From the sequence record OR424387.1: DNA of 39,891 nt; one strand, 5' to 3'. Below the pieces are notes generated by a model. That model had not been told where the DNA came from and did no database searches. It saw nothing but the letters and a program-made list of their open reading frames with translations. Shown piece after piece: positions 1,578-34,045 of this stretch; the first letter of the stretch is position 1, and each line of letters opens with the position of its first letter. This DNA comes from Escherichia phage HEMP4. The position numbers were made by a program, and so were the translations under genes.

Positions 1578-1842
1578 GCACATCCCTGTGCCGCCGCCGT
1601 CAGAAGAATCCTGCCTTGTCGTTGATGTACTCCGCGTGGGTCTGGATATCACGCAGGCATTTGCTCACACCGACGATGTAGCAGAACATGGTGGTCAGCT
1701 CCGCCGCCGCGCCCGATACGTCGTGCCCGTCTTCCTGTAACTGGTTCAGCAGATTCATCAGCAGTGAGTTCTCCGTCAGGCCGAGAACACCAGACGGAGA
1801 ATGAATCAGACTGCGGTAGCCGGGCTTCAGTGGGGCGCTGTA
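1578..1842. repeat. Internal direct repeat copy A (about 265 bp, about 96 percent identical to 33780..34045)
   Basis: Direct alignment by eye; covers 3-prime coding end and 3-prime UTR hairpin (GGCACA-nnnn-TGTGCC) of antirepressor-like gene. Confidence 0.85.
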
Positions 1843-2256
1843 TTCTTTTTTGTCTTCCAGCTTGATCGCCTCCATAATGGCGGGCATGAAGCCTGACAAG
1901 ACCTTCTCCACTTTTGTTTCTTGTTGTCTTAAACGTTTCTCGCATTCAATGAAGTAGCGTCGTACCTGACGACCTTTTTCGTTACGCTCGACCATTGCTA
2001 GTTCTTTGGCTGTATCGAGGGTGAGGTGGTACTCTTTGCGGTTGTGGCCGCCTCTACCAGATGTTTGCTTTCCCAAATTGGAAAGCAAAATATAGTCTTG
2101 ATTTTCAATGAATTCGTATTCTGAAATGCGATTTGTAATCCATGCTGCAAACACCTTTTTAACACCTAAAAAAGCGTGCAGATCGCGGGCATTGCAAAGT
2201 AGGGCTGTTTCGTTAGATATAGTGCCGTTGAATACGGGGATGAGTTGACTGGTCAT
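1600..2256 (-). CDS. Antirepressor-like protein, AntA-type N-terminal domain plus shared C-terminal domain
   Basis: ORF track 1600..2286; ATG at 2256 preceded by AGGAGG SD; N-terminal [12 protein letters not shown]...[14 protein letters not shown] resembles AntA/AntB antirepressor domain; C-terminal 80 aa identical to C-terminus of 33803..34513 and homologous to 34829..35086. Confidence 0.6.
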
Positions 2257-2580
2257 GATGACCTCCTTTGAAGTTTTAGTTAGCAATCACCAGTTAGTAG
2301 CTGGTGATCGGGTGTCAACTAGAGCCTTCAAAGACGCTCCGGGCATATTCCCCTTTTGGGTATTGTATTACGCCTCTCCACCCGACCTTTGTACGGATGT
2401 GACTATGCCAAATTGCAGGCATAAAAAAGCCGCAAAGCTATCGGGTGCGGGTGACCGCTTTGAAGTTCTAGTGCGGTCAGTATGCGATAGCTCTGGCGGC
2501 ATTGTCAAATCATGCGCCACTGAGTCCAGCAATCTCTGCAATACCAATAGCGAGATAATCGCGATTCGTCAGGCGTGATT

Positions 2581-2829
2581 TTATTGCATATGTCTTAGCT
2601 CCACTGAAGTTGTGATTTTATATGGGTTGCCTTTTACCTCAATAACACGATGAGGATCATTTTTTAGCTCTTCCGTAATCTTCCGTAATCTTCTAACAGC
2701 TGAACTTCGGTGTTTATAACGGTAAGTTACAGTTTCTTTTCTCTGCAATACCTCATCATTGCGGTACTTAGTCAAAACCATGACGACTTCAAACCTGACG
2801 CCGTTGTGTGCAACCATAATCTGCTTCAT
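2581..2829 (-). CDS. Hypothetical protein (82 aa)
   Basis: ORF in operon context; internal ATG start overlaps stop of upstream methylase gene (translational coupling); contains 10-bp tandem repeat 2671..2690. Confidence 0.4.
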   Translation of the reverse strand: MKQIMVAHNGVRFEVVMVLTKYRNDEVLQRKETVTYRYKHRSSAVRRLRKITEELKNDPHRVIEVKGNPYKITTSVELRHMQ

Positions 2830-3476
2830 GCTGCACGCTCCCGCCCCTGGTTGTCTGTTGGTGACACCGGAGCATTGCTGAATGCATTTGTTAATCCGCC
2901 AATATCCAACGCGTATCCAGGGTGTAGTTGCACTGCCGGGTCTTCGCACTGATTACCCCAAACATCGAAGCCATGAGACGTCTGGCGGGCGAACAGTTCA
3001 ATGCGAGAAACATCGCCTAACAATTGCACAAGTTTTTCACGAACGACATCTGGTTTTCTTGAATGCTCAAGCCGCGGTGCGGTAAATGACTGAACGATCC
3101 CTGCATTAATGCGTGGAGGTAGTTTTCCCTTTACTGCAAACAGGCAATCTTCACTATTGGCGCGAGTCATGTGTCCCATACCCATAACCAGTTTATCTGG
3201 TTGTCGACTACCACATTTTATCCACGTGAAGCCCTTCATGGTCATCAGACGGAATCCCCAGGCTTCAACAACTTTTAGCGCTTCGAGTGGTTGTGTTGGC
3301 ACCCACCACATGGCCAACAGACAGTTTTCATCGGCCAAATCCCACACAGGAAGGCGGCAGATATCCATCACACTCATAACCGGATATTTAAAACTGGCAC
3401 CGCGATTACCATCTGCGGCTTTGTCCCGGTATACCCAGGGTGGATCTGCATAGATTAGTGTGTATTTCTTAGTCAT
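2826..3476 (-). CDS. DNA N6-adenine methyltransferase, MT-A70-like
   Basis: Protein begins MTKKYTLIYADPPW with DPPW catalytic motif typical of MT-A70/N6-adenine MTases; no adjacent restriction endonuclease gene recognised. Confidence 0.8.
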   Translation of the reverse strand: MTKKYTLIYADPPWVYRDKAADGNRGASFKYPVMSVMDICRLPVWDLADENCLLAMWWVPTQPLEALKVVEAWGFRLMTMKGFTWIKCGSRQPDKLVMGMGHMTRANSEDCLFAVKGKLPPRINAGIVQSFTAPRLEHSRKPDVVREKLVQLLGDVSRIELFARQTSHGFDVWGNQCEDPAVQLHPGYALDIGGLTNAFSNAPVSPTDNQGRERAA

Positions 3477-3768
3477 AAACCACCCCACAACATCCTATGC
3501 CGCTATAGTCGCCACGGCGAAGGCCGTTACCTTTTGTGATACATTGGTCCCTGCGAACCGCGATCCTTGCACGCTCAACATCACCAGAAGCAACATCCAT
3601 ACACTGAAGCCAAAGGTGGGCGGCAATGCGGAACTGCCCTTTTTTCTCTCTTTCAATCGCGCGTTTTTCGATCTCTATTGCCGCAGGAGTAACGGCAACA
3701 ACCTTTGAAGGGCTGCGCATTGAAACCTTGTTCATGTGATATTTTTCAAGTCGGCTTAACTTTCTCAC
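3469..3768 (-). CDS. Hypothetical protein (99 aa)
   Basis: ORF in leftward operon, overlaps methylase start by 8 nt; GTG start with GAGGG upstream. Confidence 0.4.
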   Translation of the reverse strand: MRKLSRLEKYHMNKVSMRSPSKVVAVTPAAIEIEKRAIEREKKGQFRIAAHLWLQCMDVASGDVERARIAVRRDQCITKGNGLRRGDYSGIGCCGVVYD

Positions 3769-3877
3769 TTAATCCAACCCTCTCTGAAAATTAATGCCAG
3801 CAGATAAAGCCATGCTGAAACAGAGGCCAGGAATAAGTACCATCCTGACCATTTGCTCCAGTGCCTTAGCAGCACAC

Positions 3878-4126
3878 TCATGCAGCGTTGCTCACAGGAC
3901 GATATACACGTTGCTGAACAGGAGGCTTTTTACCCTGGAACTCTGCCGGGCTTGCTGCCTGACGTTCATCAAGCCAACGCTCAACTTCATCACGGTTCCA
4001 TGCGCAGCGTTTATCGGTGATATACCAGCGTTTAGGAAATTCCCCTGCGCGCTCCATACGGTCGATAGTGCTCCATGACAGTGGCACCACCGCCAGGAGT
4101 TCCTTCTTACCTAATGCACCTTTCAT
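3878..4126 (-). CDS. AlpA-family DNA-binding protein / putative excisionase
   Basis: 82 aa; KKELLAVVPLSWSTIDRMERAGEFPKRWYIT...WNRDEVERWL matches AlpA/Xis-like HTH pattern; GAGG SD 6 nt upstream of ATG. Confidence 0.7.
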   Translation of the reverse strand: MKGALGKKELLAVVPLSWSTIDRMERAGEFPKRWYITDKRCAWNRDEVERWLDERQAASPAEFQGKKPPVQQRVYRPVSNAA

Positions 4127-4175
4127 AAATACCTCTCTTGGTTGCAGTGCGGCGCGCGTGGCGCCGCGGTGGTGG

Positions 4176-5057
4176 TTACATAGATGTTTCGTTTAATTCT
4201 TCCCGACGAACGCTGTAAACGTCGGTGGCTTTTGCCAGCAGTTCGTCATCATCTGAAAGTTTTTGTGCAATGTATTTGTAAGCCTTATCCAGTTCGGAGA
4301 CAGTGCTGTAATTCATCGCTGCGCTGGTAAAGGCCATCAGCATTTCTTCTGGCTCACGGCTATCCGCTTTACGCGTTTGCTCATCAGGCTTTTTCACTGA
4401 TTTAGCGTTGATCAGACTGTTCATTCCCGCAGCCGTAGTCATTTGCGGAGTAATGTCTCGCTCAACGCGCGGTGCCGTTTCCTGTAATTCGTCAGGGGTG
4501 TAAACACCGAGAAGTACATCAGGAGCGTGCAGGCGAGCCCATCGTTTCGTGCAAAGATAGGCAAGTTGCTGGCGCGGATCCTGTTCCCACAATGGAGAGT
4601 TACGCACTCCTGCTTGCGCCATACTGATGGTAAGCTCACGTGGTTCTGCTTCTCCTTTAAGAACTGCTGACACAGTTACCGTCAGATTCGGTGATTTATC
4701 TGTTTTGCCGTTAACATTCGACCAGTCACCGCTCCAGCGATAATTCAGGCGTGTCGCCAGCAGGCTGGAAGAGGATACGACCGCGTTTACCAACTGTGCT
4801 TCGTAGCCTAACGTTCCGTTTACCACATGCGTTTTCTGCGCCACGGCGAAAGGGTTCATTCCCCACTGTGCCGCCTGCATGGTCACCGCCAGGCAATCGG
4901 CAGGTTTGCCTTCAAGATGTTTCGGTACAGTCGCTTTGCTTTGTGACATCAACTCCGCGAAACGCACCAGTTGATTCATGCCCTCGGGGCTGAAGATTGC
5001 CGCAGCAGTGCCTACAGTTGCGCCTGGTTGTGATGTGATTGCGATATCATTGCTCAT
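4176..5057 (-). CDS. RecT/Red-beta family single-strand annealing protein
   Basis: 293 aa; segment PLWEQDPRQQLAYLCTKRWARLHAPDVLLGVYTPDE resembles conserved region of lambda Bet; directly downstream of and overlapping exonuclease gene. Confidence 0.6.
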   Translation of the reverse strand: MSNDIAITSQPGATVGTAAAIFSPEGMNQLVRFAELMSQSKATVPKHLEGKPADCLAVTMQAAQWGMNPFAVAQKTHVVNGTLGYEAQLVNAVVSSSSLLATRLNYRWSGDWSNVNGKTDKSPNLTVTVSAVLKGEAEPRELTISMAQAGVRNSPLWEQDPRQQLAYLCTKRWARLHAPDVLLGVYTPDELQETAPRVERDITPQMTTAAGMNSLINAKSVKKPDEQTRKADSREPEEMLMAFTSAAMNYSTVSELDKAYKYIAQKLSDDDELLAKATDVYSVRREELNETSM

Positions 5058-5875
5058 ACGTACATATCCTGTTTACGTGCCCAGTCAGGGCGTTTAATAA
5101 TTTCCACTCCGCCCCATTCATCGTTGATGCGGCATTCGTGATAGGTATTCAGATCCCGGCGGAACAGAGCGTGCCCGGCATCGACATCCGGCGCATCCAG
5201 CTCGAACACGCGTACCGGATACCGACCACAATCAATGCTTTCGCTCACGGCAAGAAAGAAAAAACCATGTGGCTGACCAGTAACCCTCATTGCGCCTTCG
5301 CGGTACATTGCGTCCTGCACGTGGTAGCGGAACTCCTCGATGTGGCGTGCAAAACGGTCCATATCTGTAACCTTTTTCACGTCGACGATCACGTTGTGCT
5401 CTTTCAGCCATTTGTCTGGACGAATGCGGCACAACTCACCAGTCTCTTCATCGTTCCAGTACATTGATGCTTCGCAGTAACCAGGTGCTTCCAGCATCCA
5501 GCGTGCCGCCGGGTGAGCCATTGCGCTATCACGCATCAGCTCCAGTTTCCGCCACTGCTCGGCATCAAGTACCGTAATCCCCATATCCGCCACATCACGA
5601 AGAAATGCCTCTTCGTCAGCTTTACCTTGTTTCGTCCGACGATCGAATTTCGGCGAAACAATGAAGCGTTTGTCGAACTCTCCAGGCTCCAGAAGCAGAT
5701 AGTGCAATGCGGTTCCCATATCCAGTGCAGACTTTTTCTCTTCGTCTTCTGGTGCTGCCTGAACCCATTTAAGAAGCGCCGGATTCTTGGCAACCATGTC
5801 CAGTTGCGACTTACTCACGCCGTCCCCGGCGTGGTAGTCTTCGTTGCTGATGTCGAAATAAATTCCCGGCTTCAT
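5054..5875 (-). CDS. RecE-like exonuclease (PD-(D/E)XK, exodeoxyribonuclease VIII type)
   Basis: 273 aa starting MKPGIYFDISNEDYHAGDGVSKSQLD, characteristic of phage exonuclease VIII-like proteins; paired with annealing protein. Confidence 0.75.
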   Translation of the reverse strand: MKPGIYFDISNEDYHAGDGVSKSQLDMVAKNPALLKWVQAAPEDEEKKSALDMGTALHYLLLEPGEFDKRFIVSPKFDRRTKQGKADEEAFLRDVADMGITVLDAEQWRKLELMRDSAMAHPAARWMLEAPGYCEASMYWNDEETGELCRIRPDKWLKEHNVIVDVKKVTDMDRFARHIEEFRYHVQDAMYREGAMRVTGQPHGFFFLAVSESIDCGRYPVRVFELDAPDVDAGHALFRRDLNTYHECRINDEWGGVEIIKRPDWARKQDMYV

Positions 5876-6171
5876 GCCGCGTCCCTCTGCCCATCAAGCT
5901 GATCAGCCAGATCCCAGCGGGCGATAATTGCCATTGCCTCGCGCCGGTAGGAATCCATCAGTTCTTCGAACTCAGGGCTGTCTTTAGCTGCTTCCAGCAC
6001 TTCCTGGCGAACTCCTTTGCCTGTTACAACGTCGAAAGTTGAGGCCAGTTGATGAAGCCGGATGCTCTCAATCAGTTCAACTTGTCGGTCATATAGCTGT
6101 TCTGACAGGCGGTAGTCCTTGTCGAATGCCAGCATGATTTTTTGAAGATTTTTCTGCTGATTAACGTTCAT
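5872..6171 (-). CDS. Hypothetical early protein (99 aa)
   Basis: ORF 5872..6186 with internal ATG at 6171 (MNVNQQ...); overlaps exonuclease start. Confidence 0.5.
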   Translation of the reverse strand: MNVNQQKNLQKIMLAFDKDYRLSEQLYDRQVELIESIRLHQLASTFDVVTGKGVRQEVLEAAKDSPEFEELMDSYRREAMAIIARWDLADQLDGQRDAA

Positions 6172-6173
6172 TA

Positions 6174-6326
6174 TCAGCCCTCCCATATCTCGTTATCGTT
6201 GGCCACATCGCGAGCTTCTTTGCTGACGAAAGCCCACTTAATACCTTCCTGTAAGGTGCGGAACTTCCAGCTCATGAATCCGCATGCAGTAACGCAGTAC
6301 CAACCGTTGATGATTTTCCACTGCAT
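6174..6326 (-). CDS. Small hypothetical protein (50 aa), first gene of leftward operon
   Basis: Hand-translated MQWKIINGWYCVTACGFMSWKFRTLQEGIKWAFVSKEARDVANDNEIWEG; GAGG SD upstream; below ORF-track length cutoff. Confidence 0.3.
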   Translation of the reverse strand: MQWKIINGWYCVTACGFMSWKFRTLQEGIKWAFVSKEARDVANDNEIWEG

Positions 6327-6345
6327 AACTTGTTACCTCGGTTTG

Positions 6346-6360
6346 TTACCGTTGAGGTAA
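6346..6360. promoter_or_regulatory. Operator-like palindrome TTACC-N5-GGTAA (left operator region, site 1)
   Basis: ttaccgttgaggtaa, perfect inverted repeat, intergenic upstream of leftward operon. Confidence 0.55.
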
Positions 6361-6407
6361 TGATTATGCGTATTTGGTTTGGTGTCAATAGATATGAGTT
6401 AAAAAAA

Positions 6408-6422
6408 TTACCCACAAGGTAA
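6408..6422. promoter_or_regulatory. Operator-like palindrome TTACC-N5-GGTAA (left operator region, site 2)
   Basis: ttacccacaaggtaa, perfect; 62 bp from site 1. Confidence 0.55.
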
Positions 6423-6479
6423 TCTTGCTGGCAATAAAAAAGCCGCCATGAGGCGGCTTACTTGCTGAAAACTATAGTT

Positions 6480-7064
6480 TTATTGTTTGCTTTTTTCGTT
6501 CTGGTTGATGACAAATTCAATGTAACTTTCGATCTTTGCTTTCTCGGTTTCGGGTAACAATGCGTAGCGCGAGCGGTCATAGTTGATAGTCGCAGGGTCG
6601 TGCGGGTGAATCAGTAATTCATAGCCGTGACGCCCGAATGCGGATGCAACATTCTCCAGGGTGGAAATGGAAACGCTGACCTCATTGTTTAACAGGCGGC
6701 TGATTGTCACCTGGGCGACGCCGGATGCGCGGTGAAGTTTTCCCTGTGTTGAAAGGTCGCGGCTTTCGCTCATCCAGCGTTCCAGGTTGTGAGCCGCCAG
6801 CTGACCAATGTCGCTTGGGCCGACAGGCTGAAAACCTTCCTGAGAAAGCGAGCGATCGATATCAAGCCAGTTACGGGGTTTATTGGCGGCAGCTTCAATT
6901 TTTCGCGCAACCTGGTCGCCGATAACCTTCTTACCAAGAGCCCAGCGGTTTACCAGATTTGCCTGAGTTCCAAGTTTTTCTGCCATCCGCGTCTGAACAC
7001 CATTGAATTCACGGTCGATCAAGTCGTTGAGATTTTGCCTGCGGACGTCCTGGATACTTTTCAT
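6480..7064 (-). CDS. Putative prophage repressor (HTH, no recognisable S24 peptidase domain)
   Basis: 194 aa, divergent from Cro-like gene with operator cluster between; N-terminal HTH-like segment TRMAEKLGTQANLVNRWALGKK; no Ala-Gly/Ser-Lys autocleavage module seen; no SD upstream of ATG. Confidence 0.55.
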   Translation of the reverse strand: MKSIQDVRRQNLNDLIDREFNGVQTRMAEKLGTQANLVNRWALGKKVIGDQVARKIEAAANKPRNWLDIDRSLSQEGFQPVGPSDIGQLAAHNLERWMSESRDLSTQGKLHRASGVAQVTISRLLNNEVSVSISTLENVASAFGRHGYELLIHPHDPATINYDRSRYALLPETEKAKIESYIEFVINQNEKSKQ

Positions 7065-7119
7065 TTTCTGGAAAATCGCCTCATATATGAATCAGTAGAT
7101 GATTCAATTTAAAGCAATA

Positions 7120-7182
7120 TTACCCAACAGGTAAATGCACCCCATAGGTAACTATCCTTGATTTTTGTTACCTTATGGGTGA
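7120..7182. promoter_or_regulatory. Right operator cluster: three TTACC-N5-GGTAA-type sites (7120..7134 perfect, 7137..7151 8/10, 7168..7182 9/10)
   Basis: ttacccaacaggtaa, gcaccccataggtaa, ttaccttatgggtga within the 154-bp divergent intergenic region. Confidence 0.6.
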
Positions 7183-7218
7183 ATATTTATTATCTGAAAT
7201 AAATATCAGGCAATAGCT

Positions 7219-7449
7219 ATGAGCGATAACGGACATTTCGATTTCAAAAAGCACTGGCTTGCACTTACTCCGGATGAGCGTGAAGCCTTCGCACAGGAAG
7301 CCGGAACGACGAGTCACTATATACAGACTCACTTAACAGGTAAGCGCAAAATGCCAGGTAAGGTATTGATGAATGGGCTTTTTAAAGCCTGTAAAACAAG
7401 ACAATGGCTGCGCTCAAAAGCAGAACTGGCATACTTCTTCTACTCATGA
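7219..7449 (+). CDS. Cro-like / YdaS-type HTH regulator
   Basis: 76 aa, divergent from repressor; LTPDEREAFAQEAGTTSHYIQTHL HTH-like segment. Confidence 0.6.
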   Translation: MSDNGHFDFKKHWLALTPDEREAFAQEAGTTSHYIQTHLTGKRKMPGKVLMNGLFKACKTRQWLRSKAELAYFFYS

Positions 7450-7472
7450 TATCCAGCCACAACCCTCTGTAG

Positions 7473-7494
7473 ACCGCCACCCGGCGGTCTTTTC
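7473..7494 (+). terminator. Rho-independent terminator after cro-like gene
   Basis: GACCGCC-accc-GGCGGTC followed by TTTT. Confidence 0.65.
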
Positions 7495-7597
7495 ATATCT
7501 ATTCGTACCTCAAAGGTAATAAAAAACCAAATCTGGTTGATCAAATTTTCCAATTGTGCAAAATAGCCAATATCAATAACAAAAAGGGGCGGAAAAA

Positions 7598-7810
7598 TTG
7601 AAGATAGTAACCAGAATGGAGGCCGCAAAAGCCGGGTTAAATCGCTATTTCACAGGAAAGCGGTGCCGTCACGGCCATCTCTCTGAAAGGTATGTTCTGA
7701 ACGGAACATGTGTTGAATGTGCAATGAATAGCGCCAACCGCTATCGTAATGAATTTGCTTGTGCACTAAAGAGTGCAAGAGGGGAAACCTATGGCAAGCA
7801 GCTGGATTAA
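7598..7810 (+). CDS. Small Cys/His-rich protein, possible zinc-binding regulator
   Basis: 70 aa, TTG start with AGGGGCGG upstream; CRHGH...CVEC motif; function not recognised. Confidence 0.4.
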   Translation: MKIVTRMEAAKAGLNRYFTGKRCRHGHLSERYVLNGTCVECAMNSANRYRNEFACALKSARGETYGKQLD

Positions 7811-9369: not shown

Positions 9370-9406
9370 TACCAGCGCGATAGCGCATTTTTTTACGCCT
9401 ACATGA

Positions 9407-9421
9407 TTACCTGTTGGGTAA
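9407..9421. promoter_or_regulatory. Operator-like palindrome TTACC-N5-GGTAA
   Basis: ttacctgttgggtaa, perfect, intergenic. Confidence 0.5.
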
Positions 9422-9468
9422 CAAAATGTTCTAATCTCTATTGATTTCATGTCTTATGTGGTTTTTAA

Positions 9469-9483
9469 TTACCTAAGGGGTAA
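9469..9483. promoter_or_regulatory. Operator-like palindrome TTACC-N5-GGTAA overlapping RBS region of 9487 gene
   Basis: ttacctaaggggtaa, perfect, ends 4 nt before ATG. Confidence 0.5.
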
Positions 9484-9486
9484 ATC

Positions 9487-9831: not shown

Positions 9832-9892
9832 AGCGACGATCTTTTTAGTTATCAATGTAATCAATAAGTTATGTGGATAAGCGAGGGTAAAG

Positions 9893-10324
9893 ATGGAAAG
9901 TAATATCAAAGGGTTAGTTGCCGCCGGGCATGAGATGGCTTCGGAACTGAAAGCAGAATGTGGTGCCGTTGATATGCGCAGTGTGGCAAAGCTGATCAGC
10001 GATTTGGCAACGCAACTGGAAGTGCAACTGGTGCGTGCTAATGCGCTGGCGGCGGAGAATGAGCTGGCTCGTAAGGCAGTTCAGGCATTCTGCGATGTTG
10101 TTGGCGACAACACCGAGGTTATCGCTGAGGTGGTTGGGCGAGATGGCGTTCTGGTTATTTTGGAGGCCATGAAGGCAACAGGAAATATGCCAGCCACCGA
10201 TGCTTTTCTGGCTGAAGTACGGGCGCAGGGGGTGGAGATGTTTGCGGAGTGTGCATACACACTTGAACATCATGATCACGCAGTAGCCTTCGCCGCTGAG
10301 CTTCGCAAAGGAGGCAACCAGTGA
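9893..10324 (+). CDS. Hypothetical protein (143 aa), Ea22-region-like
   Basis: ORF with GAGGG SD; alanine-rich helical protein. Confidence 0.45.
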   Translation: MESNIKGLVAAGHEMASELKAECGAVDMRSVAKLISDLATQLEVQLVRANALAAENELARKAVQAFCDVVGDNTEVIAEVVGRDGVLVILEAMKATGNMPATDAFLAEVRAQGVEMFAECAYTLEHHDHAVAFAAELRKGGNQ

Positions 10325-11055
10325 GCAAGATTGATTATCAAAAGCTTCGTGAAATCGCTGAAAAAACAAAAATTGCTGGTGAAGCACCTGTAATGCCTTT
10401 CGATCAGCGAATTAATGCGCTTAACGATTTTATGAAGCACTTTTCGCCAGATATCGCGCGGGCATTGCTGGATGAACGGGAAAGGAACCAGCAATACATC
10501 AAACGCCGCGACCAGGAGAACGAGGATATTGCGCTAACGGTAGGGAAGCTGAGAGTTGAGCTTGAGGAAGTAAAACAACACGCTGAAGAATTATCCGAAA
10601 CCAAGGCTGTTCGTAACCAATGGCGGCCAGATATTTGCCCAATAACCGGACGTGCATTTTTCATGTGGATTGAGCATCCAACATTGGGGAATGTGCCGAC
10701 ATATGGTGGCCCATTAGATAGTTACACAATTCCAACAAAGGACGGTGACGGTGAGTTTTCATGTGAGCGTTACGATCATGATTTTGGCGGTTGGGTAGAA
10801 AGCGAATGTCTTGGGTTATATCTGATTGATGATAGAGAACAATGCAGGGTCTACGAACTGGAGGAACGCGTTAAGGAACTGGATGCTCGGGAAATATCGC
10901 TCCCGGAACGTAGCAGCATGCTTCATCGAACAGATTTTCACGATGATTACCAAACGGTAATGGCATACAAAGTTTCTGAAGTCATCGATGCAATCCGCGC
11001 TACTGGCATTTGCATCAAAGGAGACGCAGGAGAGCAAAACGATGAAAAACCGTAA
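10321..11055 (+). CDS. Ead/Ea22-like protein
   Basis: 244 aa; GTG start 6 nt after AAGGAGG; N-terminal MSKIDYQKLREIAEK and coiled-coil region resemble Ea22-family proteins. Confidence 0.55.
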   Translation: MSKIDYQKLREIAEKTKIAGEAPVMPFDQRINALNDFMKHFSPDIARALLDERERNQQYIKRRDQENEDIALTVGKLRVELEEVKQHAEELSETKAVRNQWRPDICPITGRAFFMWIEHPTLGNVPTYGGPLDSYTIPTKDGDGEFSCERYDHDFGGWVESECLGLYLIDDREQCRVYELEERVKELDAREISLPERSSMLHRTDFHDDYQTVMAYKVSEVIDAIRATGICIKGDAGEQNDEKP

Positions 11056-11407
11056 AGCAAAATTACTTCTTTTATCGCGTTCGACGGGGTACGAGAAGCT
11101 ACCAATCAGCAATCACAAACGGGCGGTGATCGGCATGTTTGGTAGGGTGGTATTCGCATTTAACTATAAACCCACCGCGTCGCGGAACAGACGAGAGAAG
11201 GGGTACGCAGTGCGATGAAAAACCGTAAGGCAAAGATGCTGATAGCAAAGCCCGGGCAGCGTATCCGTATCTCAAATCGGCTTGTTATTTACTATAGATA
11301 TCTGGGTTTTAGGGGGTGTTCCTCTATTCGTTTTTACGGTGTCTGGCGAAACAGAAGCGCAGCACAAAACCGCTGGAAAAACCACTTTCGCACTAAAGGA
11401 GAGTGAT

Positions 11408-12241
11408 ATGACCACTTTCACCGACAAAGAACTGATTAAAGAAATCAAAGAGCGTATCAGCAGCCTGGACGTTCGAGACAATATTGAACGCCGGGCTTAT
11501 GAAATCGCCCTGGCATCGCTGGAAGCAGAACCGGTGGCGTGGATGCGTGATGACGCAGATGGTCGTGAGTATAACGCTCGCAATGAATTTTCTGGTGGAG
11601 GGGGAGGAATTCCACTCTACGCCACCCCTCAGGTGCAGGTAGTGCCGGAAGAAATGTATTGGCAGGATGCGCCAGTTGAAGGCAGCAGCAAAGCGGCTGC
11701 ATACGCTACAGGCTGGAACGATTGCCGCGAAGCCATGCTTCAGTCCGGAAACTTTCGGGAAAATAAAGATTCGTCAACCAATAATTTTCGGAAAATCCCG
11801 GAAGCGTCAACCAGCTCTCCGGTAACTCCGGCTCTTCTGCCTGGTGGTTTCACCATTGAGGAGGCGAAGGAATTACATGAAGACCTGGTATGCAGCCACA
11901 TAAGCAAGGCCTTAAGTGGCGAAAAGATGAAAAAGAAAGATCGCGATGCTGATTTGCGCTGGATTCATGGCGTTATAGTTCAGGCAGCGTGGTTTGTAAA
12001 AGCATCACTGGAGCAGAATGCACTATCGGGCAACTATCCGGTAACTCCGGATGGTTGGATAAGCTGTAGTGAGCGAATGCCCCCTCAAGATGATTGGATT
12101 TTAATTTATTCAAAGCACGGCGAGTATATGGCAGGACAGGTACAAGGGGAATACGTGGAGTTGAGCGACGGCACTTTATCGTGGTTAGGGAACGCCTTGT
12201 TCTGGATGCCGCTACCAGAACCGCCGCAGGAGGTGAAGTGA
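11408..12241 (+). CDS. DUF551-domain protein
   Basis: ATG at 11408 after AAGGAGAG; C-terminal ...GTLSWLGNALFWMPLPEPPQE typical of DUF551. Confidence 0.55.
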   Translation: MTTFTDKELIKEIKERISSLDVRDNIERRAYEIALASLEAEPVAWMRDDADGREYNARNEFSGGGGGIPLYATPQVQVVPEEMYWQDAPVEGSSKAAAYATGWNDCREAMLQSGNFRENKDSSTNNFRKIPEASTSSPVTPALLPGGFTIEEAKELHEDLVCSHISKALSGEKMKKKDRDADLRWIHGVIVQAAWFVKASLEQNALSGNYPVTPDGWISCSERMPPQDDWILIYSKHGEYMAGQVQGEYVELSDGTLSWLGNALFWMPLPEPPQEVK

Positions 12242-12591: not shown

Positions 12592-12922
12592 ATCAGCAGC
12601 AGAGCGCAAAGCCGCTCAGAGAGCCAGACAAGCTGCATCTGGTGTGCGTAAGCTGGAGATTGTGCTTGATGCTCAGGAAATTGAAATGCTTGAGCGTAAC
12701 TGTGCCGCACGTCGCCCCGGGCGTGCGCCTTACGAATTTGGTGAGTATATAGCGTTACTGATCCGCCAGGATGATGCACGCGTGCGCGGGCGTATAAAAT
12801 CGATCAGTAGAAAACGTTGCGGTAAGTGCGGCGAGAGAGTTCCCGTTAATTCATGCCCGTGTAATGGTGACTCGCAATGCTGGGTGACTAAAGGCTGGTA
12901 TGAAACGAAATTAATAGTGTGA
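12584..12922 (+). CDS. Putative DNA-binding regulator with C-terminal Cys-rich zinc-ribbon-like tail
   Basis: 112 aa; basic N-terminus ERKAAQRARQAASGVRKLEIVLD (ribbon-helix-helix-like) and CGKCGERVPVNSCPCNGDSQC; last gene before packaging operon; stop codon lies inside GTGACATGTCAC palindrome. Confidence 0.5.
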   Translation: MAKSAAERKAAQRARQAASGVRKLEIVLDAQEIEMLERNCAARRPGRAPYEFGEYIALLIRQDDARVRGRIKSISRKRCGKCGERVPVNSCPCNGDSQCWVTKGWYETKLIV

Positions 12923-12930
12923 CATGTCAC
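12919..12930. promoter_or_regulatory. Palindrome GTGACATGTCAC, copy 1
   Basis: Perfect 12-bp palindrome overlapping TGA stop of 12584..12922; also at 15184 and 32792. Confidence 0.5.
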
Positions 12931-12971
12931 GAGTAGATTATGCATGATGAATTTGACGGGTTTTGAATACT

Positions 12972-12997
12972 GCCGCCAACTATGGCGGCTTTATTTT
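12972..12997 (+). terminator. Rho-independent terminator
   Basis: GCCGCC-aactat-GGCGGC followed by TTTATTTT. Confidence 0.65.
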
Positions 12998-13008
12998 GCA
13001 TGGTACTA

Positions 13009-13041
13009 TTACCACAACGGTAACTATTACCACGGTGGTTA
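13009..13041. promoter_or_regulatory. Two operator-like sites upstream of terS (13009..13023 perfect; 13027..13041 9/10)
   Basis: ttaccacaacggtaa and ttaccacggtggtta. Confidence 0.5.
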
Positions 13042-15159: not shown

Positions 15160-15184
15160 AGCCAGCTCATAGGCTGGCTGTTTG
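15160..15184. terminator. Bidirectional hairpin terminator between convergent terL and moron gene
   Basis: AGCCAGC-tcatag-GCTGGCT; T-rich tail on minus-strand side (TTGTTTTAT), weaker on plus. Confidence 0.55.
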
Positions 15185-15195
15185 TGACATGTCAC
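15184..15195. promoter_or_regulatory. Palindrome GTGACATGTCAC, copy 2 (within 14-bp palindrome TGTGACATGTCACA)
   Basis: Perfect palindrome adjacent to terminator. Confidence 0.5.
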
Positions 15196-15820: not shown

Positions 15821-15897
15821 TGGCGCGGCATGCAGGATTCGAACCTGCGACCAACCGCTTAGAAGGCGGTTGCTCTGTCCAACTGAGCTAATGCCAC
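15821..15897 (-). tRNA. tRNA-Arg (anticodon UCU)
   Basis: Reverse complement folds as cloverleaf: acceptor GTGGCAT/ATGCCGC (one G-U), D-arm GCTC-AGTTGGACA-GAGC, anticodon stem ACCGC/GCGGT with loop CTTCTAA (anticodon TCT), T-arm GCAGG-TTCGAAT-CCTGC, discriminator G, CCA end; 77 nt. Confidence 0.85.
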
Positions 15898-28024: not shown

Positions 28025-29823
28025 GTTACTTTGGCCTTAATCCAGTAAACCAGAATCAGCAGCTTGACGAAGCAGCATCAAATCCAGCTGGCTTTAACAG
28101 CGATGTTGGTTTTTTCGACAATGCTGTAGGAGCGGCATTGTCTGGTTTGTACTCCGGGCTGGTGGCAAAGCCAGATCAGTTGCTATGGGCAGGGATGGAT
28201 AAAATCGTATCCCCGATTGCTCAGTTTGTTAACGAAAACACCTCGCTCAATGATACTTCAGTTTCATACATTGCCGAGCAGAGAAAACTAGCAGAGCAGC
28301 AGGTTAAGCGGCTGACGCCTGATGCCGCGACAACCGGAACCGCTGGGCAGGTTCTTTATGGGTTGTTCGATATGGGCGGGCAGGCTGTTGTCGGTACAAC
28401 GCTCGGTGGTCCTGTCGGAGGTGCAGCGGCGGTAACTTCGCTACAGGGTTTTTCTGAGTTTGAACGGCTGACAGCACAGGGTGTTGATTTCAGGACGGCG
28501 CAGGAAGCGGGATTAGTGCAGGGCATTACTGCTGGTGCCGGAACGCTGATCCCTATGAGCCTCGGGTTACGTGCTGGTGGTGCGCTGGCGGAAGGTGTGG
28601 CGGCTCAGCTTGCGCGGACGGGTGAGAGTTCAGTGCGACGCGCCGCAGCAACAGCAGTACGTGCAACGCCAGATATTGCCTATGCCGCAGGTACAAATAT
28701 TGCGTTCGGTATGGCACAGCGTGGGCTTACTGCAAAAACACTTCGTGATGGTGGCTATAGCGAAATGGCTAACCAGTATGATGTGTTGGATCGACAGGCA
28801 ATTGCTATTGATGCTGTTCTTGGGGTGGCGTTTGGTGGTGTCGGCAGATTTATTAACTCTCGCGGCGAGTCTACAAACGCACCAAATTTTTCACCAGTTG
28901 ATATCGATGCTGCACTGGCGGCGAATGCCGCTCATCATGCTGAAATTGATATTGCGCCCGGCGTGCCGATCAACGTGCTTTCGCGCAATTCTCACATTCA
29001 GGCTCTGCGAAAAGCTATGTCTGATGTTAGCCAGGGGAGACCTGTAGACGTTGCCAGCATTGTTGAGTCTGCATCTTTCAGTGAAATTCCTGGGCGCAAG
29101 AGTCTGCTGTCTCAGGCAGTTAATGAGGCTCTGTCATCTGTAGATGATGGAGTAACGGCGCGCGCTATAGAAAATCGGTTGCTTGAAGAACAGGCCGCGC
29201 AGCTTTTGCCGCGTGGAGATAGACAGGTTTACCAGTCTGAAATCGCTAATAGCCAACGAATTATTGAAAATCTCACTGAACAGCGTGCACAAATTCTTGC
29301 AGAAGAGCCAACCGGTAGCGGTAAAGCTTTGTCTCGTGCTCGATCAGATAAACAGGCCAGACTTCGCGATATTGATCAACGAATCCGGCAGGCACAAGAA
29401 CGCCTGGAATTTTCCCGTAACGCGTTGGCACCGCACGAGCCTGGCGGTCAGTTTTTTGAAGCTCGAGCAGAACTGGCTCGGAGACAGCAGGCAGAAAGTG
29501 AACTTAATGCTCAGGCTGTTTCATTCTATAAAACAGCAGAGGTCAGGACGCCAGACGAAGTAGCTCCTTTTGAGCCTGATAAAATATTGCAACAGGCAGA
29601 ACAAAAAATGATGTCAGATCAGGCAGGAGATATTGATCTGCGCATAGCTGAAGACTCGCTGCTTGAATCACCTGACATGATAATCACCGTGCTGGATGAT
29701 GATGGTAATCCACAATCGCGCAGTGCGCGTGAAGTACTGGATGAAGCGAACAGGGAAAGTGAGCAGGCAATACAGGATTCCAGCCTGTTTGATGTTGCTG
29801 TGGCGTGTTTCTTGAGAGGTTAA
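28021..29823 (+). CDS. Large internal virion / ejection protein (600 aa)
   Basis: Overlapping start/stop with neighbours; Ala/Gly-rich. Confidence 0.5.
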   Translation: MSYFGLNPVNQNQQLDEAASNPAGFNSDVGFFDNAVGAALSGLYSGLVAKPDQLLWAGMDKIVSPIAQFVNENTSLNDTSVSYIAEQRKLAEQQVKRLTPDAATTGTAGQVLYGLFDMGGQAVVGTTLGGPVGGAAAVTSLQGFSEFERLTAQGVDFRTAQEAGLVQGITAGAGTLIPMSLGLRAGGALAEGVAAQLARTGESSVRRAAATAVRATPDIAYAAGTNIAFGMAQRGLTAKTLRDGGYSEMANQYDVLDRQAIAIDAVLGVAFGGVGRFINSRGESTNAPNFSPVDIDAALAANAAHHAEIDIAPGVPINVLSRNSHIQALRKAMSDVSQGRPVDVASIVESASFSEIPGRKSLLSQAVNEALSSVDDGVTARAIENRLLEEQAAQLLPRGDRQVYQSEIANSQRIIENLTEQRAQILAEEPTGSGKALSRARSDKQARLRDIDQRIRQAQERLEFSRNALAPHEPGGQFFEARAELARRQQAESELNAQAVSFYKTAEVRTPDEVAPFEPDKILQQAEQKMMSDQAGDIDLRIAEDSLLESPDMIITVLDDDGNPQSRSAREVLDEANRESEQAIQDSSLFDVAVACFLRG

Positions 29824-29828
29824 ATTAA

Positions 29829-32303
29829 ATGAGACAGGAATGTATACAAGCGGTCCAGCAGGCGGCGCAGCGCACGTTAACGGCGCGAGAAATACAGAAC
29901 ATTGAAGACCGCATTTATCGAAATATGCGCTCCATTGCTCGTGATGACCCGATGTCGTGGCGACAACTTTCCGAATCAGAACGGTTGTATCGTGCAGCAC
30001 AATTGGCATCTGAAGAATTACAGCGAGAAGCGGCATTAAAGAAACGTCGTGTGGCCCTCACTATAGCCGCACGTCAGAGATTGGATAAATTTATCAATAG
30101 CTATCAAGGGGCTGATGGGAAACTTGGCGCTCTTAACCGTACTATTGCTTTTAATGCAGACGGTAAATCGAATTTCCTCTCTGTTGAATCCAGAACAAAA
30201 GCCACCCGTGATTATGCATTGAGTCAATTGCAGGAGGCATTCGAAGCAGTTGATCCTCGCTTTTTTGGTCTGTTTGAAGATGAAGCGGGCGTACGTGACC
30301 TGATATATGAAATGCGGGGGCAAAATACTGGCAATGCTAAAGCAAGAAAAGGTGCTAAGGCGTGGAGAGAAGTTACAGAGCTGCTGCGCCGCCGGTTTAA
30401 TGATGCTGGTGGGGACATTGGCTATCTCGAAAACTGGGGGATCCCTCAACATCATTCTATGGAAAAGGTTGGGGCGGTATCAAAAGATAAATGGGTTAGC
30501 GATGTTATAGGTAAGCTGGATCGCAAATATTATACCCGAGCCGATGGACAACTGATGAACGATGCCGAGTTGTCTGCATTTCTTGGAGAGGCTTATAACA
30601 CGATCGCTACTGGTGGGCTGAATAAGCTTACTGATACCGGAATGCGAATTTCCGGCGCACGTGCTAACCGTGGTAATGCATCACGACAGATACATTTCAA
30701 AGATGCAGATTCCTATCTGCAATATCAGCAACTTTATGGCGATCGCTCTCTATGGGAAATCATGGTCGGTCACCTGGAAGGTATCAGTAAAGATATTGCA
30801 CTGGTGGAAACATATGGTCCAAACCCCGATCATGTTTTCCGCTCTCTTCTTGATCAGGTGAAGGCAGAAACGGCAACAGCTAACCCGAGTAAAACCGGTA
30901 AAGTCGAGCGGCTGGCGAACAACACAGAGAATCTGTACAACTTTATTTCCGGAAAGACACAGCCTGTAGCGAATCCGCACATCGCGCGATGGTCTGACAA
31001 TATCCGCAACTGGCTGGTTGCCAGCAGACTCGGATCCGCGTTGCTGTCATCGTTCTCTGATCTTGGAACCATGTATCTGTCTGCGAAGGTTACCAACCTT
31101 CCAATGAACCAGTTATTCCGCAACCAGCTTGAAGCTATGGACCCAACGAACCGTACAGAACTTGCGCGGGCGCGCCGCGCTGGTCTGGCGATGGAATCTC
31201 TACTTGGCAGCGTTAACCGCTGGGCGATGGATAATATGGGGCCGTCTGTGTCTCGTTGGGCTGCAACGGCGGTAATGCGTGCCAGTGGGCTTACAGCATG
31301 GTCAGATGCGCACAAGCGCGCCTATGGCGTAACCATGATGGGAAGCCTGGGAGAAGTAGTGTCACGGACACCAGACCTTCGTCGCCTCGATGACTCTGAT
31401 TTTCGTATCCTGAAAAGCAAAGGGATTACTGACACAGACTGGAGCGTATGGAAGTTGGCGCAACAGGAGGACTGGGGGAACGGTAATAATACGATGCTGA
31501 CACCGGAAAGCATTATGCGTATCCCTGATTCAGCAGTTAAACATCTTGGTGAGCCTGAACGCGTGAAATTTGAGGCAATGCGTAAACTGCTCGGTGCCGT
31601 AACTGAAGAAGTTGATATGGCTGTTATTACACCGGGAGCACGTGAGCAACTGATAACCGGTTCTGGTATTCAGCGTGGAACATGGAAAGGTGAATTAACG
31701 AGAAGTGTTTTCCTGTTTAAATCGTTCCCTATCTCGGTTGTTATGCGTCACTGGTCACGCGCTATGGGTATGCCGTCTGCTGGTGGGCGTGCGGCATATA
31801 TTGCGACGTTTATTGCCAGTACGACCATTCTTGGCGCTTTGTCGCAACAACTTAACGACCTTGCGTCTGGTCGTAATCCTCGAGAGATGACAGGAGAAGA
31901 TGCTGCTAAATTTTGGCTTGGTGCTCTACTGAAAGGTGGTGGTCTTGGCCTTTACGGTGACTTTTTATTGTCAGATCACACTAGGTACGGGAGCGGCGCG
32001 CTGGCGTCGATGCTTGGCCCGGTAGCTGGTCTGGTTGATGACGTAGTGAAGATAGCTCAGGGCATACCGCTAAATGCTGTGGAAGGGAAGAGTGAGCAGA
32101 CTGGTGGTGATCTGGTGAAGCTGGGGAAAGGTTTGATGCCAGGTGCGAATCTCTGGTACTTGAAGGCGGCTCTCGATCACATGATCTTTAATCAGATGCA
32201 GGAGTATTTTTCACCAGGCTATTTGCGTAAAATGGAGCAACGTTCGAAGAAAGAGTTTAACCAGACATACTGGTGGCGACCTCAGGATGTCACTCCGCAA
32301 TAA
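29829..32303 (+). CDS. Large internal virion / ejection protein (824 aa)
   Basis: Large ORF completing structural operon. Confidence 0.5.
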   Translation: MRQECIQAVQQAAQRTLTAREIQNIEDRIYRNMRSIARDDPMSWRQLSESERLYRAAQLASEELQREAALKKRRVALTIAARQRLDKFINSYQGADGKLGALNRTIAFNADGKSNFLSVESRTKATRDYALSQLQEAFEAVDPRFFGLFEDEAGVRDLIYEMRGQNTGNAKARKGAKAWREVTELLRRRFNDAGGDIGYLENWGIPQHHSMEKVGAVSKDKWVSDVIGKLDRKYYTRADGQLMNDAELSAFLGEAYNTIATGGLNKLTDTGMRISGARANRGNASRQIHFKDADSYLQYQQLYGDRSLWEIMVGHLEGISKDIALVETYGPNPDHVFRSLLDQVKAETATANPSKTGKVERLANNTENLYNFISGKTQPVANPHIARWSDNIRNWLVASRLGSALLSSFSDLGTMYLSAKVTNLPMNQLFRNQLEAMDPTNRTELARARRAGLAMESLLGSVNRWAMDNMGPSVSRWAATAVMRASGLTAWSDAHKRAYGVTMMGSLGEVVSRTPDLRRLDDSDFRILKSKGITDTDWSVWKLAQQEDWGNGNNTMLTPESIMRIPDSAVKHLGEPERVKFEAMRKLLGAVTEEVDMAVITPGAREQLITGSGIQRGTWKGELTRSVFLFKSFPISVVMRHWSRAMGMPSAGGRAAYIATFIASTTILGALSQQLNDLASGRNPREMTGEDAAKFWLGALLKGGGLGLYGDFLLSDHTRYGSGALASMLGPVAGLVDDVVKIAQGIPLNAVEGKSEQTGGDLVKLGKGLMPGANLWYLKAALDHMIFNQMQEYFSPGYLRKMEQRSKKEFNQTYWWRPQDVTPQ

Positions 32304-32312
32304 GGAAGTGTT

Positions 32313-32486
32313 GTGTTTTTAATTATTTTGAGTGTGATAATTTCTGGTGGATTGTTATTTATTGACCGCTACAAATATTTTCTTAACCCTCAGACTCAAG
32401 CTATTTGCTGGTTCATCTTTGTTGTGCAGGGAGTAGTTCTTGTTGCAAGCCTTATTGAGGGGAGGCCTCTTATTTTTACTGGGTAA
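32313..32486 (+). CDS. Small hydrophobic protein (57 aa), putative membrane protein
   Basis: Hand-translated from GTG 32313 (AAGGA SD 6 nt upstream): MFLIILSVIISGGLLFIDRYKYFLNPQTQAICWFIFVVQGVVLVASLIEGRPLIFTG; below ORF-track cutoff. Confidence 0.3.
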   Translation: MFLIILSVIISGGLLFIDRYKYFLNPQTQAICWFIFVVQGVVLVASLIEGRPLIFTG

Positions 32487-32498
32487 ATAGGTGACTAC

Positions 32499-32795
32499 AT
32501 GCAAGCTATAGGATTCATTGTTTATATCGTCGTTGGTCTTTTTCAGTTGGCAGCAATTATGGCTGGGCTTGAATCATGGTGGGGATTGCACTGGATAATT
32601 GCAGCCCCCATTGCTTTCATCGTGAGCTATATTCCATTTGTTGGAGCGATTGTTGGTATGGTTGGCGCTGTGGATGTATGGCGGTGGGAGTGGTGGCAGG
32701 CTGGCCTTCTCTTCTTTGGTGGGATCATCTTTGCTATTGTCTGCGGTGGAATGTCATCATTTTTCGAATGGCTATCATTCAGAAAAGGGACGTGA
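32499..32795 (+). CDS. Small integral membrane protein (98 aa, about 3 TM segments)
   Basis: Highly hydrophobic; AGGTGA SD; stop codon inside GTGACATGTCAC palindrome, then terminator. Confidence 0.5.
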   Translation: MQAIGFIVYIVVGLFQLAAIMAGLESWWGLHWIIAAPIAFIVSYIPFVGAIVGMVGAVDVWRWEWWQAGLLFFGGIIFAIVCGGMSSFFEWLSFRKGT

Positions 32796-32803
32796 CATGT
32801 CAC
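32792..32803. promoter_or_regulatory. Palindrome GTGACATGTCAC, copy 3
   Basis: Perfect 12-bp palindrome overlapping TGA stop, directly followed by terminator. Confidence 0.5.
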
Positions 32804-32804
32804 A

Positions 32805-32828
32805 GGCCGCTTTCGCGGCCTTGTTTTT
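32805..32828 (+). terminator. Rho-independent terminator
   Basis: GGCCGC-tttc-GCGGCC followed by TTGTTTTT. Confidence 0.7.
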
Positions 32829-33054
32829 AACGAATGCCACCGCCGCCCGGGCGGGAATCCGCAGAACGCCCACCGCAGCGGGAGCCGTCAGCGGCAGTGT
32901 CGCTGTCGTGCTGACAACGACCGGCAAAGGCCTGAGTTGAAGCTACCAGAGACAACAAAACGAACAGTGCAGCAAATGCTTTTTTCATTGTGAAATTTCC
33001 ATCTATAAGCCACCTCAATGTGGCGTCAATGAGTGTAGCACTGACTTTTGTTTC

Positions 33055-33083
33055 GTCCACAAAAAAGCCCGCAGCGCGGGCTA
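33055..33083 (-). terminator. Rho-independent terminator for moron cassette
   Basis: On minus strand TAG-CCCGC-gct-GCGGGC followed by TTTTTT; stop codon embedded in stem. Confidence 0.7.
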
Positions 33084-33521
33084 TTCTTCTTCATCATTAA
33101 AAAGCGGATTGTTGTTTCCATCTGATGAAAGGAAAGGTATGTGTTCTCTTGAAAATCCAACAATGACAATTTCATTATCATTTTTTGCATAATGAATGCA
33201 TTCATTAGAATGCCTTCCGCTAGGGTTGAAATTTAAGTTAATGGTATAATTCTTAAATGTGTTTGGATACCATGTTGGCCCACAATGATAATGCCAATAA
33301 TTCTCTTGCTCATAATTGTCTGAGCCGGGAATTTTATCATGGTTATCATCAACCCATGAGGGCTTGTTTTTTCCAACAAGCGCCCTTCCATTGGCAACAT
33401 CCTCTAAAAAACTTTGTATGATTTTTATTTCATCATCAGTAAGGAAAGGTCCGTCTACAGCGAAAGGGGTGTTGCTTTCCCCATGTAGAAAACTATTAGA
33501 TATTCTAATGTTAAACTTCAA
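33081..33521 (-). CDS. Hypothetical moron protein B (146 aa), AT-rich, acidic C-terminus, probable TTG start
   Basis: ORF track 33081..33662; no in-frame ATG after upstream gene stop; TTG at 33521 sits 7 nt after AGGAG; Asn/Asp/Glu-rich with HYHCGP and C-terminal NDEEE. Confidence 0.5.
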   Translation of the reverse strand: MKFNIRISNSFLHGESNTPFAVDGPFLTDDEIKIIQSFLEDVANGRALVGKNKPSWVDDNHDKIPGSDNYEQENYWHYHCGPTWYPNTFKNYTINLNFNPSGRHSNECIHYAKNDNEIVIVGFSREHIPFLSSDGNNNPLFNDEEE

Positions 33522-33541
33522 GGAAAACTCCTGATGTGCTT

Positions 33542-33709
33542 CTATTTGGAGCGAAATGCCGCCTTGAAGTCGCTGAAAGATGTTCCTGTCTGGTAAACCA
33601 TATCCTTGTCGCGCTCTTTGCTTGCGCGGCCAAGCATAACTTTTCCAATGACATCCCAGCATTGCTTGGCTTGTTCATTGTGCTGAGTACGATTTTTCAA
33701 CGCTGTCAT
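33542..33709 (-). CDS. Hypothetical small moron protein A (55 aa)
   Basis: Hand-translated MTALKNRTQHNEQAKQCWDVIGKVMLGRASKERDKDMVYQTGTSFSDFKAAFRSK; GGAGG SD 6 nt upstream; operator-like site just upstream. Confidence 0.4.
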   Translation of the reverse strand: MTALKNRTQHNEQAKQCWDVIGKVMLGRASKERDKDMVYQTGTSFSDFKAAFRSK

Positions 33710-33721
33710 ATCGCGCCTCCT

Positions 33722-33736
33722 TTACCTTTAAGGTAA
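33722..33736. promoter_or_regulatory. Operator-like palindrome TTACC-N5-GGTAA upstream of moron cassette
   Basis: ttacctttaaggtaa, perfect, followed by TATTAC. Confidence 0.5.
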
Positions 33737-33779
33737 TATTACGCGAATCTACATCACATCGCCAATGATTATTTTAAAG

Positions 33780-34045
33780 GCACATCCCTGTGCCGCCGCC
33801 CGTCAGAAGAACCCAGCCTTGTCGTTGATGTACTCCGCGTGGGTCTGGATATCACGCAGGCATTTGCTCACACCGACGATGTAGCAGAACATGGTGGTCA
33901 GCTCCGCCGCCGCGCCCGATACGTCGTGCCCGTCTTCCTGTAACTGGTTCAGCAGATTCATCAGCAGTGAGTTCTCCGTCAGGCCGAGAACACCAGACGG
34001 CGAATGAATCAGGCTACGGTAGCCGGGCTTCAGTGGGGCACTGTA
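33780..34045. repeat. Internal direct repeat copy B (matches 1578..1842)
   Basis: Same as copy A. Confidence 0.85.

Follow-up and report, generated by a model that had tools for sequence, protein, structure and literature searches.

Antirepression of Rep by Ant, the control of ant genes by c4 and IsrK RNAs, and the shuffling of Bro and Ant domains are all already known. The Rep-Ant switch of Salmonella phage SPC32H is the structural model of antirepression, in which an 86-residue Ant, itself a tetramer, by itself binds and dismantles the repressor Rep (PDB 5D50, the crystallised Rep-Ant complex; PMC9638917), but it has been studied in a phage that has the small Ant only. The immI region of phages P1 and P7 runs from target sites through c4 and further target sites at the ribosome-binding site (RBS) to ant (Citron and Schuster, 1990, summarised in PMC7313666). 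In the APSE phages, C4 and IsrK stand beside a BRO-N gene and Xcc1 stands beside ORF6N/AntA genes (PMC7313666). The trans-acting antirepressors of the Gifsy and Fels prophages work through protein-protein contact with repressors, with possible crosstalk between prophages (Lemire et al., 2011, cited in PMC7380047). Here we describe a related arrangement in Escherichia phage HEMP4 (sequence record OR424387.1), the whole 39,891-nucleotide stretch of which is referred to below as the window. Two of its genes, antA and antB, end in a near-identical direct repeat. We consider it probable that this repeat is a common effector module (a linker and a predicted Ant-fold domain of 80 residues, together with the stop codon and a 3' hairpin) of two antirepressor genes and not a recent duplication. 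We found no prior description of long antirepressors gated by RNA that share the SPC32H-type Ant fold as their C-terminal module beside a LexA-gated small Ant, with two or three such genes in one 40-kb phage. The repeat as such is ordinary phage mosaic modularity, with no sign of genome instability.

The repeat and the genes that share it

The two copies were aligned with MAFFT, and a repeat finder was run separately on the whole window. In the alignment copy A (1578-1845) and copy B (33780-34048) measure 268 and 269 nt and differ by six substitutions and one indel (~97% identity), with ~67% similarity extending beyond the block to ~1875/34075. The repeat finder returned an ungapped stretch of 259 nt at 96% identity (1597-1855 vs. 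33800-34058). The longest identical block within the repeat is a perfect 185-bp core at 1613-1797. A preliminary description of this locus had given 1578-1842 and 33780-34045 at about 96% identity; its coordinates proved right to within 3 nt, and the much lower identity that it had allowed for on realignment did not appear. The only other long direct repeat returned for the window is the 127-bp overlap of its ends (1-127 = 39765-39891), so chance is excluded as the cause of the repeat. The features concerned are the following:

1577 to 1592, minus strand: hairpin at the end of copy A, without a following U-tract, 9 nt past the stop codon of the convergent int gene
1578 to 1845, minus strand: repeat copy A, comprising the last 80 codons, the stop codon (1600-1602) and the 3' hairpin of antA
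1600 to 2256, minus strand: antA, 218 residues, with a Pfam AntA N-domain (residues 22-92) and a predicted Ant-fold C-domain (residues 137-213) aligned to 5D50_E
6480 to 7064, minus strand: Rep, homologous over its full length to the repressor of SPC32H (5D50_A, E = 3.5e-42) and the presumed target of the Ant-fold domains
33779 to 33794, minus strand: weakly terminator-like hairpin at the end of copy B, with UUUAAAAUAAU after it
33780 to 34048, minus strand: repeat copy B, comprising the last 80 codons, the stop codon (33803-33805) and the 3' hairpin of antB
33803 to 34513, minus strand: antB, 236 residues, with a Pfam Bro-N domain (residues 17-112) and a predicted Ant-fold C-domain (residues 155-231) aligned to 5D50_E
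34829 to 35086, minus strand: small stand-alone Ant, 85 residues, ~88% identical to SPC32H Ant, just upstream of antB
35108 to 35123, no strand assigned: perfect LexA box CTGTATAAATATACAG, 22 nt upstream of the small ant gene

Copies A and B encode identical last 80 residues in an AntA-type and a Bro-N-type protein whose N-terminal parts are unrelated, and the hairpin reads GGCACAGGGATGTGCC on the coding strand at both places. This bears out the earlier proposal that the repeat covers the 3' coding ends and hairpins of two antirepressor genes. RefSeq annotates antA as 'phage antirepressor Ant'. In a phmmer search of the PDB the C-domains matched residues 3-79 of the SPC32H Ant chain 5D50_E, with E-values of 4.6e-14 for antA and 1.2e-13 for antB; the homology spans most of the 86 residues of Ant, and a Rep-type repressor, the cognate of this fold, is encoded in the same genome. 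The repeat-encoded domain has ~39-45% identity to the small Ant of this phage and is therefore a paralogue of that SOS-controlled protein. The small ant gene, whose product is the true SPC32H-type Ant, is annotated only as a 'hypothetical protein' in RefSeq for related prophages. A scan of the whole window for LexA boxes, which gave 15 against 14.3 expected by chance, placed none upstream of antA and none directly upstream of antB, the box ahead of the small ant gene being the sole one in these regions. Because they have no LexA-operated promoter, the long genes are architectural variants, not orthologues, of SPC32H ant.

Both long genes are instead preceded by leader RNAs, of which Rfam called the Xcc1-type, C4 and IsrK-like RNAs at scores above its gathering cut-offs:

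2298 to 2387, minus strand: sRNA-Xcc1-type (c4-like) RNA, 62.9 bits (gathering cut-off 53), directly upstream of antA
2415 to 2508, minus strand: promoter-like site (2508-2479) and upstream hairpin/terminator RNA (hairpin 2415-2478), which holds a second CUUCAAAG target
34562 to 34645, minus strand: C4 antisense RNA, 66 bits (gathering cut-off 45), directly upstream of antB
34670 to 34746, minus strand: IsrK-like small RNA with a terminator, 67 bits, also directly upstream of antB, which holds duplicates of both C4 target sites

Loop-target pairs were taken from a search for exact complements, duplexfold on the whole RNAs having given only uninformative long duplexes. For the Xcc1 loop CUUUGAAG the complement is CUUCAAAG, a site that overlaps the Shine-Dalgarno sequence of antA and recurs in the upstream hairpin. 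The C4 segments CCACUUAG and ACGCCAA are exact complements of sites that immediately precede the Shine-Dalgarno sequence of antB, and of the copies of these sites in the IsrK-like RNA. Between the cassettes the same search gave no cross-matches, neither RNA fitting the sites of the other. Each cassette has the two hallmarks of c4 control, namely a c4-family RNA upstream of ant, and complementarity to an RBS site with duplicated upstream targets. The two long ant genes are each preceded by a P1 immI-type antisense-RNA leader of their own; the leaders are unrelated, and their specificities do not match. Such pairing of leader and gene is known and recurrent, since the APSE paper records C4 and IsrK with BRO-N and Xcc1 with ORF6N/AntA.

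In the mechanism that we propose, both long proteins would bind and disable the same repressor, Rep, through the common tail, in the manner of SPC32H Ant. Each long ant gene would be silenced by its own c4-type RNA and released in the immI style, for example on infection of a cell without that RNA, by an altered RNA balance, by superinfection or through crosstalk, and the small Ant would serve SOS induction through LexA. Three triggers, each with a gate of its own, would then be available to the phage: the small Ant for SOS and the two antisense-RNA-gated long Ants for anti-immunity. Rep is constant in this phage group (non-synonymous divergence, dN, ~0.002), which may be why the tail is constant, and the constancy of the tail would in turn make unrelated front ends exchangeable through it. 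Purifying selection for fit to the repressor, together with population-level recombination, would uphold the DNA identity of the module, which would be the joint at which N-domains and leaders get swapped. If the tail is the Rep-binding part, several independent induction and anti-immunity inputs converge on one repressor; if this is true, the tail is also a traceable recombination joint for the study of how phage switches are rewired. More tentatively, three Ant-fold proteins acting on one repressor may form a three-input OR gate for exit from lysogeny, with the long Ants on orthogonal c4-type RNAs and the tail as an interchangeable plug, a scheme that we regard as possible but doubtful. The Bro-N and AntA N-domains would in that scheme add a further function, such as binding of DNA or of a host factor. 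As an alternative to the OR gate, the long Ants may assemble into the tetramer of the small Ant and modulate its action.

Distribution of the module and its mosaic joints

Of 5426 complete E. coli genomes, 469 contain the 268-bp module, at 582 places in total and always at 95-98% identity, so that such prophages are present in ~9% of these genomes, Shiga toxin-producing strains included. Its N-domain partners were read from the RefSeq annotations under the E. coli matches, which name AntA, BRO-N, ORF6N and antirepressor-N-domain (P22-type) proteins and thus at least four N-domain types. A protein homology search with the 82-residue domain returned 20 short proteins and no Pfam architectures, and was unusable for fusion partners. 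Among deposited phages, SPC32H, epsilon15 and SPN1S of Salmonella have the small Ant only, in one place each, whereas those of E. coli, Enterobacter and Klebsiella have the small Ant and a long Ant with the repeat-encoded tail. In these E. coli, Klebsiella and Enterobacter relatives, long antirepressors of the Bro-N, AntA, ORF6N or P22 type that stand under c4-type RNA end in the same fold, with two to three such genes in some; most relatives carry a single copy of the module. Klebsiella and Raoultella have stand-alone 95-residue versions of the domain that include the MPAI..EA.K linker, and for this reason a free-standing paralogue is plausible as the ancestor of the fused tail. These stand-alone genes (at 3001-3288 of the Klebsiella/Raoultella loci) lie in a small island, where an AlpA-like gene and a HicA/DUF1902 pair adjoin them.

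Homology among the relatives breaks at three places, namely at the start codon, in the linker and just after the hairpin. The antA gene beside int lies in a cassette, within which it arrived:

1569 to 2824, minus strand: int-proximal cassette of 1.26 kb, with an 82-residue open reading frame (ORF), the promoter-like site, the leader RNAs and antA

This cassette stands in place of a ~190-bp DUF1382 ORF of ZX5, TL-2011b and phiv142-3, which have no ant gene adjoining int. The antA leader (97% identical) and the AntA N-domain are also found in lambdoid prophages, for example that of O104:H4, where they are joined to a different tail; the region 1937-2514 as a whole is 85% identical to the O104:H4 prophage. 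In phiv142-3 and nine complete E. coli genomes an AntA N-domain occupies locus B, the site of antB in the window, between the C4 leader and the common tail, which the locus-B downstream DNA follows. A third gene with the same tail, in inverted orientation, is present in TL-2011b and 2013C_3963; it combines the tail with a P22-type Ant N-domain and has an Arc-like neighbour. The preliminary description had suggested that the repeat marks a mosaic boundary used in module exchange, and comparison with relatives upheld this, given the AntA N-domain at locus B and the P22-type Ant-N and ORF6N partners. The TUM9803 prophage has three tail copies, one of them inverted, and E. coli E57 (NZ_CP121153.1) apparently has an AntA-type gene at both loci, which would lengthen the direct repeat to ~680 bp. 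Derivation of antA from antB by duplication was considered and rejected, as their N-domains and leaders are non-homologous, and the leader and AntA N-domain occur with the other tail in lambdoids.

Age of the repeat and alternative explanations

Over their 80 common codons, copies A and B show six synonymous and no non-synonymous differences, which corresponds to a synonymous divergence (dS) of ~0.11 on 58 synonymous sites. For the core genes int, rep, portal, capsid and recT, dS between the window phage and its relatives is 0.02-0.11. We also compared 19 copies from 11 genomes over 258 positions. The mean number of differences per 258 nt was 10.1 for pairs within a genome and 9.2 for pairs between genomes, and 7.5 for same-locus against 10.2 for different-locus pairs; just four amino-acid positions vary across the 19 copies. 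The mark of concerted evolution, paralogues closer to each other than orthologues, was not seen among these copies. Because the dS between A and B equals or exceeds that of the core genes, and pairs within a genome are no closer than the rest, the split between A and B dates back about as far as the clade itself. Such high DNA identity is to be expected of any conserved gene in a tightly related phage group under strong purifying selection, and here it reflects a protein-invariant module common to the whole Uetakevirus pool of E. coli. The preliminary description had taken near-identity to imply recent duplication or gene conversion in this genome, and neither the dS nor the pairwise comparison supports it.

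An alternative, that a recent intragenomic duplication or conversion in this lineage copied the 3' end of one ant gene to the other, we judge improbable. Identity does fall sharply from ~97% to ~67% at 1845 with homology continuing beyond, all six substitutions lie outside the identical core, the phage encodes RecE/RecT, and position 1633 is G in both copies of the window and C in copy A of its nearest relatives, EC332 and TUM9803. However, besides a dS at or above the clade-wide value and a within-genome mean above the between-genome mean, the 185-bp core of copy A is a common haplotype, identical to that of the B copy in the unrelated genome 2013C_3963, and in every copy the flanks of the module prove ~2.4 times more variable per site. 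Moreover, neither the N-domains nor the leaders are homologous, and antA sits with the same tail at locus B in other phages. The G at position 1633 hints at short-patch conversion, but as a single base it carries no statistical weight. A scan statistic for a recent conversion tract was discounted, the core being a widespread haplotype and the flanks more variable in every copy. A second alternative makes the repeat a functional recombination site that splits or rearranges the genome, or routinely produces remnants. A perfect direct repeat of 185 bp is, as the preliminary description had proposed, a plausible substrate for homologous recombination, here by RecA or by the RecET system of the phage:

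4176 to 5875, minus strand: recT and a recE-like exonuclease gene, a phage-encoded system of homologous recombination for which the repeat is a possible substrate

Recombination at the repeat would give a 7.7-kb product with int, antB, the small ant, tail fibre and lysis genes, which would be the chromosomal remnant after deletion in a prophage, and a reciprocal 32.2-kb circle without these genes; both would be defective, with essential genes missing. Both recombinant junctions were built in silico, and a match to the deletion junction in the E. coli genomes was defined by at least 80% query coverage. None of the 5426 E. coli genomes had the deletion junction at this coverage, and an exact-pattern scan found it in none of the GTDB representatives, IMG/VR or the JGI metagenomes, against 26 instances of the parental junction in the same collections (19 E. 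coli genomes, four viral contigs and three metagenome contigs). The exact reciprocal junction, with the Xcc1 leader at locus B, was likewise absent. With so small a parental sample, the result speaks only against the persistence of recombinant products and not against their formation. Despite the perfect core and the presence of recT and recE, a functional site is thus very improbable in view of the missing junctions, the loss of essential genes from both products and the single copy in most relatives. An artefact, in which the repeat collapsed in a short-read graph and one copy was misplaced, has next to no probability. The overlap of the ends is typical of assembly with k = 127 and the identical core is longer than k, but the same order and both junctions recur in EC332 and TUM9803. 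The prophage of the complete E. coli EC332 genome, beside guaA, is colinear with the window at 99.9% except for the variable segment 10250-12201, and the int-antA junction recurs in 19 complete E. coli genomes; since the two-copy arrangement is reproduced in these independent genomes, it is not an assembly artefact, a doubt that the preliminary description had raised. The common domain might, finally, be a generic oligomerization or scaffold tail, with specificity residing in AntA and Bro-N and the two proteins having different targets. This would fit the tetrameric state reported for SPC32H Ant (PMC9638917), the large and variable nature of the Bro-N and AntA domains, and the limited identity of the tail to the small Ant. 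We think it unlikely, since the 86 residues of SPC32H Ant suffice to bind and dismantle Rep (PDB 5D50; PMC9638917), the tail varies with the type of prophage, and in the Uetakeviruses, which have one common Rep, the tail is invariant while N-domains swap. That the lambdoid Ant of O104:H4 has the same leader and AntA N-domain with another tail favours the tail as the specificity element.

Some points weigh against a shared module of long standing, the reading that we prefer. All six A/B differences fall outside the 185-bp core and polymorphisms are shared across loci, because of which some inter-locus conversion over evolutionary time is likely. The dS estimate is based on only 58 synonymous sites, and the lack of recombinant junctions is set against ~26 parental instances. 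With ~39-45% identity to the small Ant, the tail could also have another repressor, or another surface, as its target.

Genome context and comparison with known systems

The window is a temperate Uetakevirus of E. coli that belongs to the epsilon15/phiV10 group, with vB_EcoP_ZX5, TL-2011b, phiv142-3 and phiV10 as best matches. In the prophage the order is guaA, attL, int (318-1568), antA, methylase, recET, rep and replication genes, followed by structural genes, antB, small ant, tail fibre, lysis genes and attR. The sole departure from the EC332 prophage, 10250-12201, is a swapped block among the early-right genes (ead/DUF551 type). The identical 127-bp ends are a circular-assembly overlap (127 being a common assembler k-mer) and not a biological terminal repeat. 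The junction of prophage and guaA in E. coli TUM9803 begins at window position 111, which places the attP core near 111-127. A tRNA-Arg(tct) gene (15821-15897, minus strand) lies between the terminase and portal genes and is conserved in related prophages. A perfect 12-bp palindrome, GTGACATGTCAC, occurs three times (12919-12930, 15184-15195 and 32792-32803) where 0.1 is expected by chance, at the start of the terminase operon, right after the large terminase gene and right after the last structural gene, respectively, and is a candidate for a regulator site or terminator stem.

Of the known systems, the SPC32H Rep-Ant switch (Kim and Ryu, 2013; Kim et al., 2016; PDB 5D50/5D4Z) is like this locus in belonging to the epsilon15-like group, and it has counterparts in the Rep homologue, the LexA-boxed 85-residue Ant and the further, predicted Ant-fold domain of the window. 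It differs, together with epsilon15 and SPN1S, in having the small Ant only, whereas the window also has the predicted Ant fold as the C-terminus of 218- and 236-residue proteins, which have c4-type RNAs in front and no LexA box. With P1/P7 immI the window shares a c4-family RNA upstream of an antirepressor gene, complementarity to an RBS site and targets duplicated upstream. In contrast to immI, the window has no identified icd-like ORF, has two orthogonal cassettes in one 40-kb podovirus, and has an effector C-domain of the SPC32H-Ant type. Domain shuffling in phage regulators of the Bro-N/KilA-N/Ant type was reportedly described by Iyer, Koonin and Aravind in 2002. Our locus resembles such shuffling, and the boundary sequences of lambdoids, in that one C-module occurs with AntA, BRO-N, ORF6N and P22-type Ant-N and that breaks lie at domain borders. 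It differs in that the module is still 95-98% identical in DNA across its partners, and the exchanges are therefore recent on the scale of the clade and traceable to particular junctions. The isrK-orf45-anrP region of Gifsy-1 (Hershko-Shalev et al., 2016, PMC4825925) has the same succession of an IsrK with its own terminator, a leader and an antirepressor gene. In the window, however, no orf45 coupled to the start of ant was found, the ORF that starts in the C4 region stopping after 14 codons, and the downstream target in Gifsy-1 is the expression of antQ, whereas the window phage is a Uetakevirus and not lambdoid. The Gifsy/Fels antirepressors are alike in that several antirepressors act on repressors by protein contact, as the window proteins would, but they are small Tum-type proteins under LexA control.

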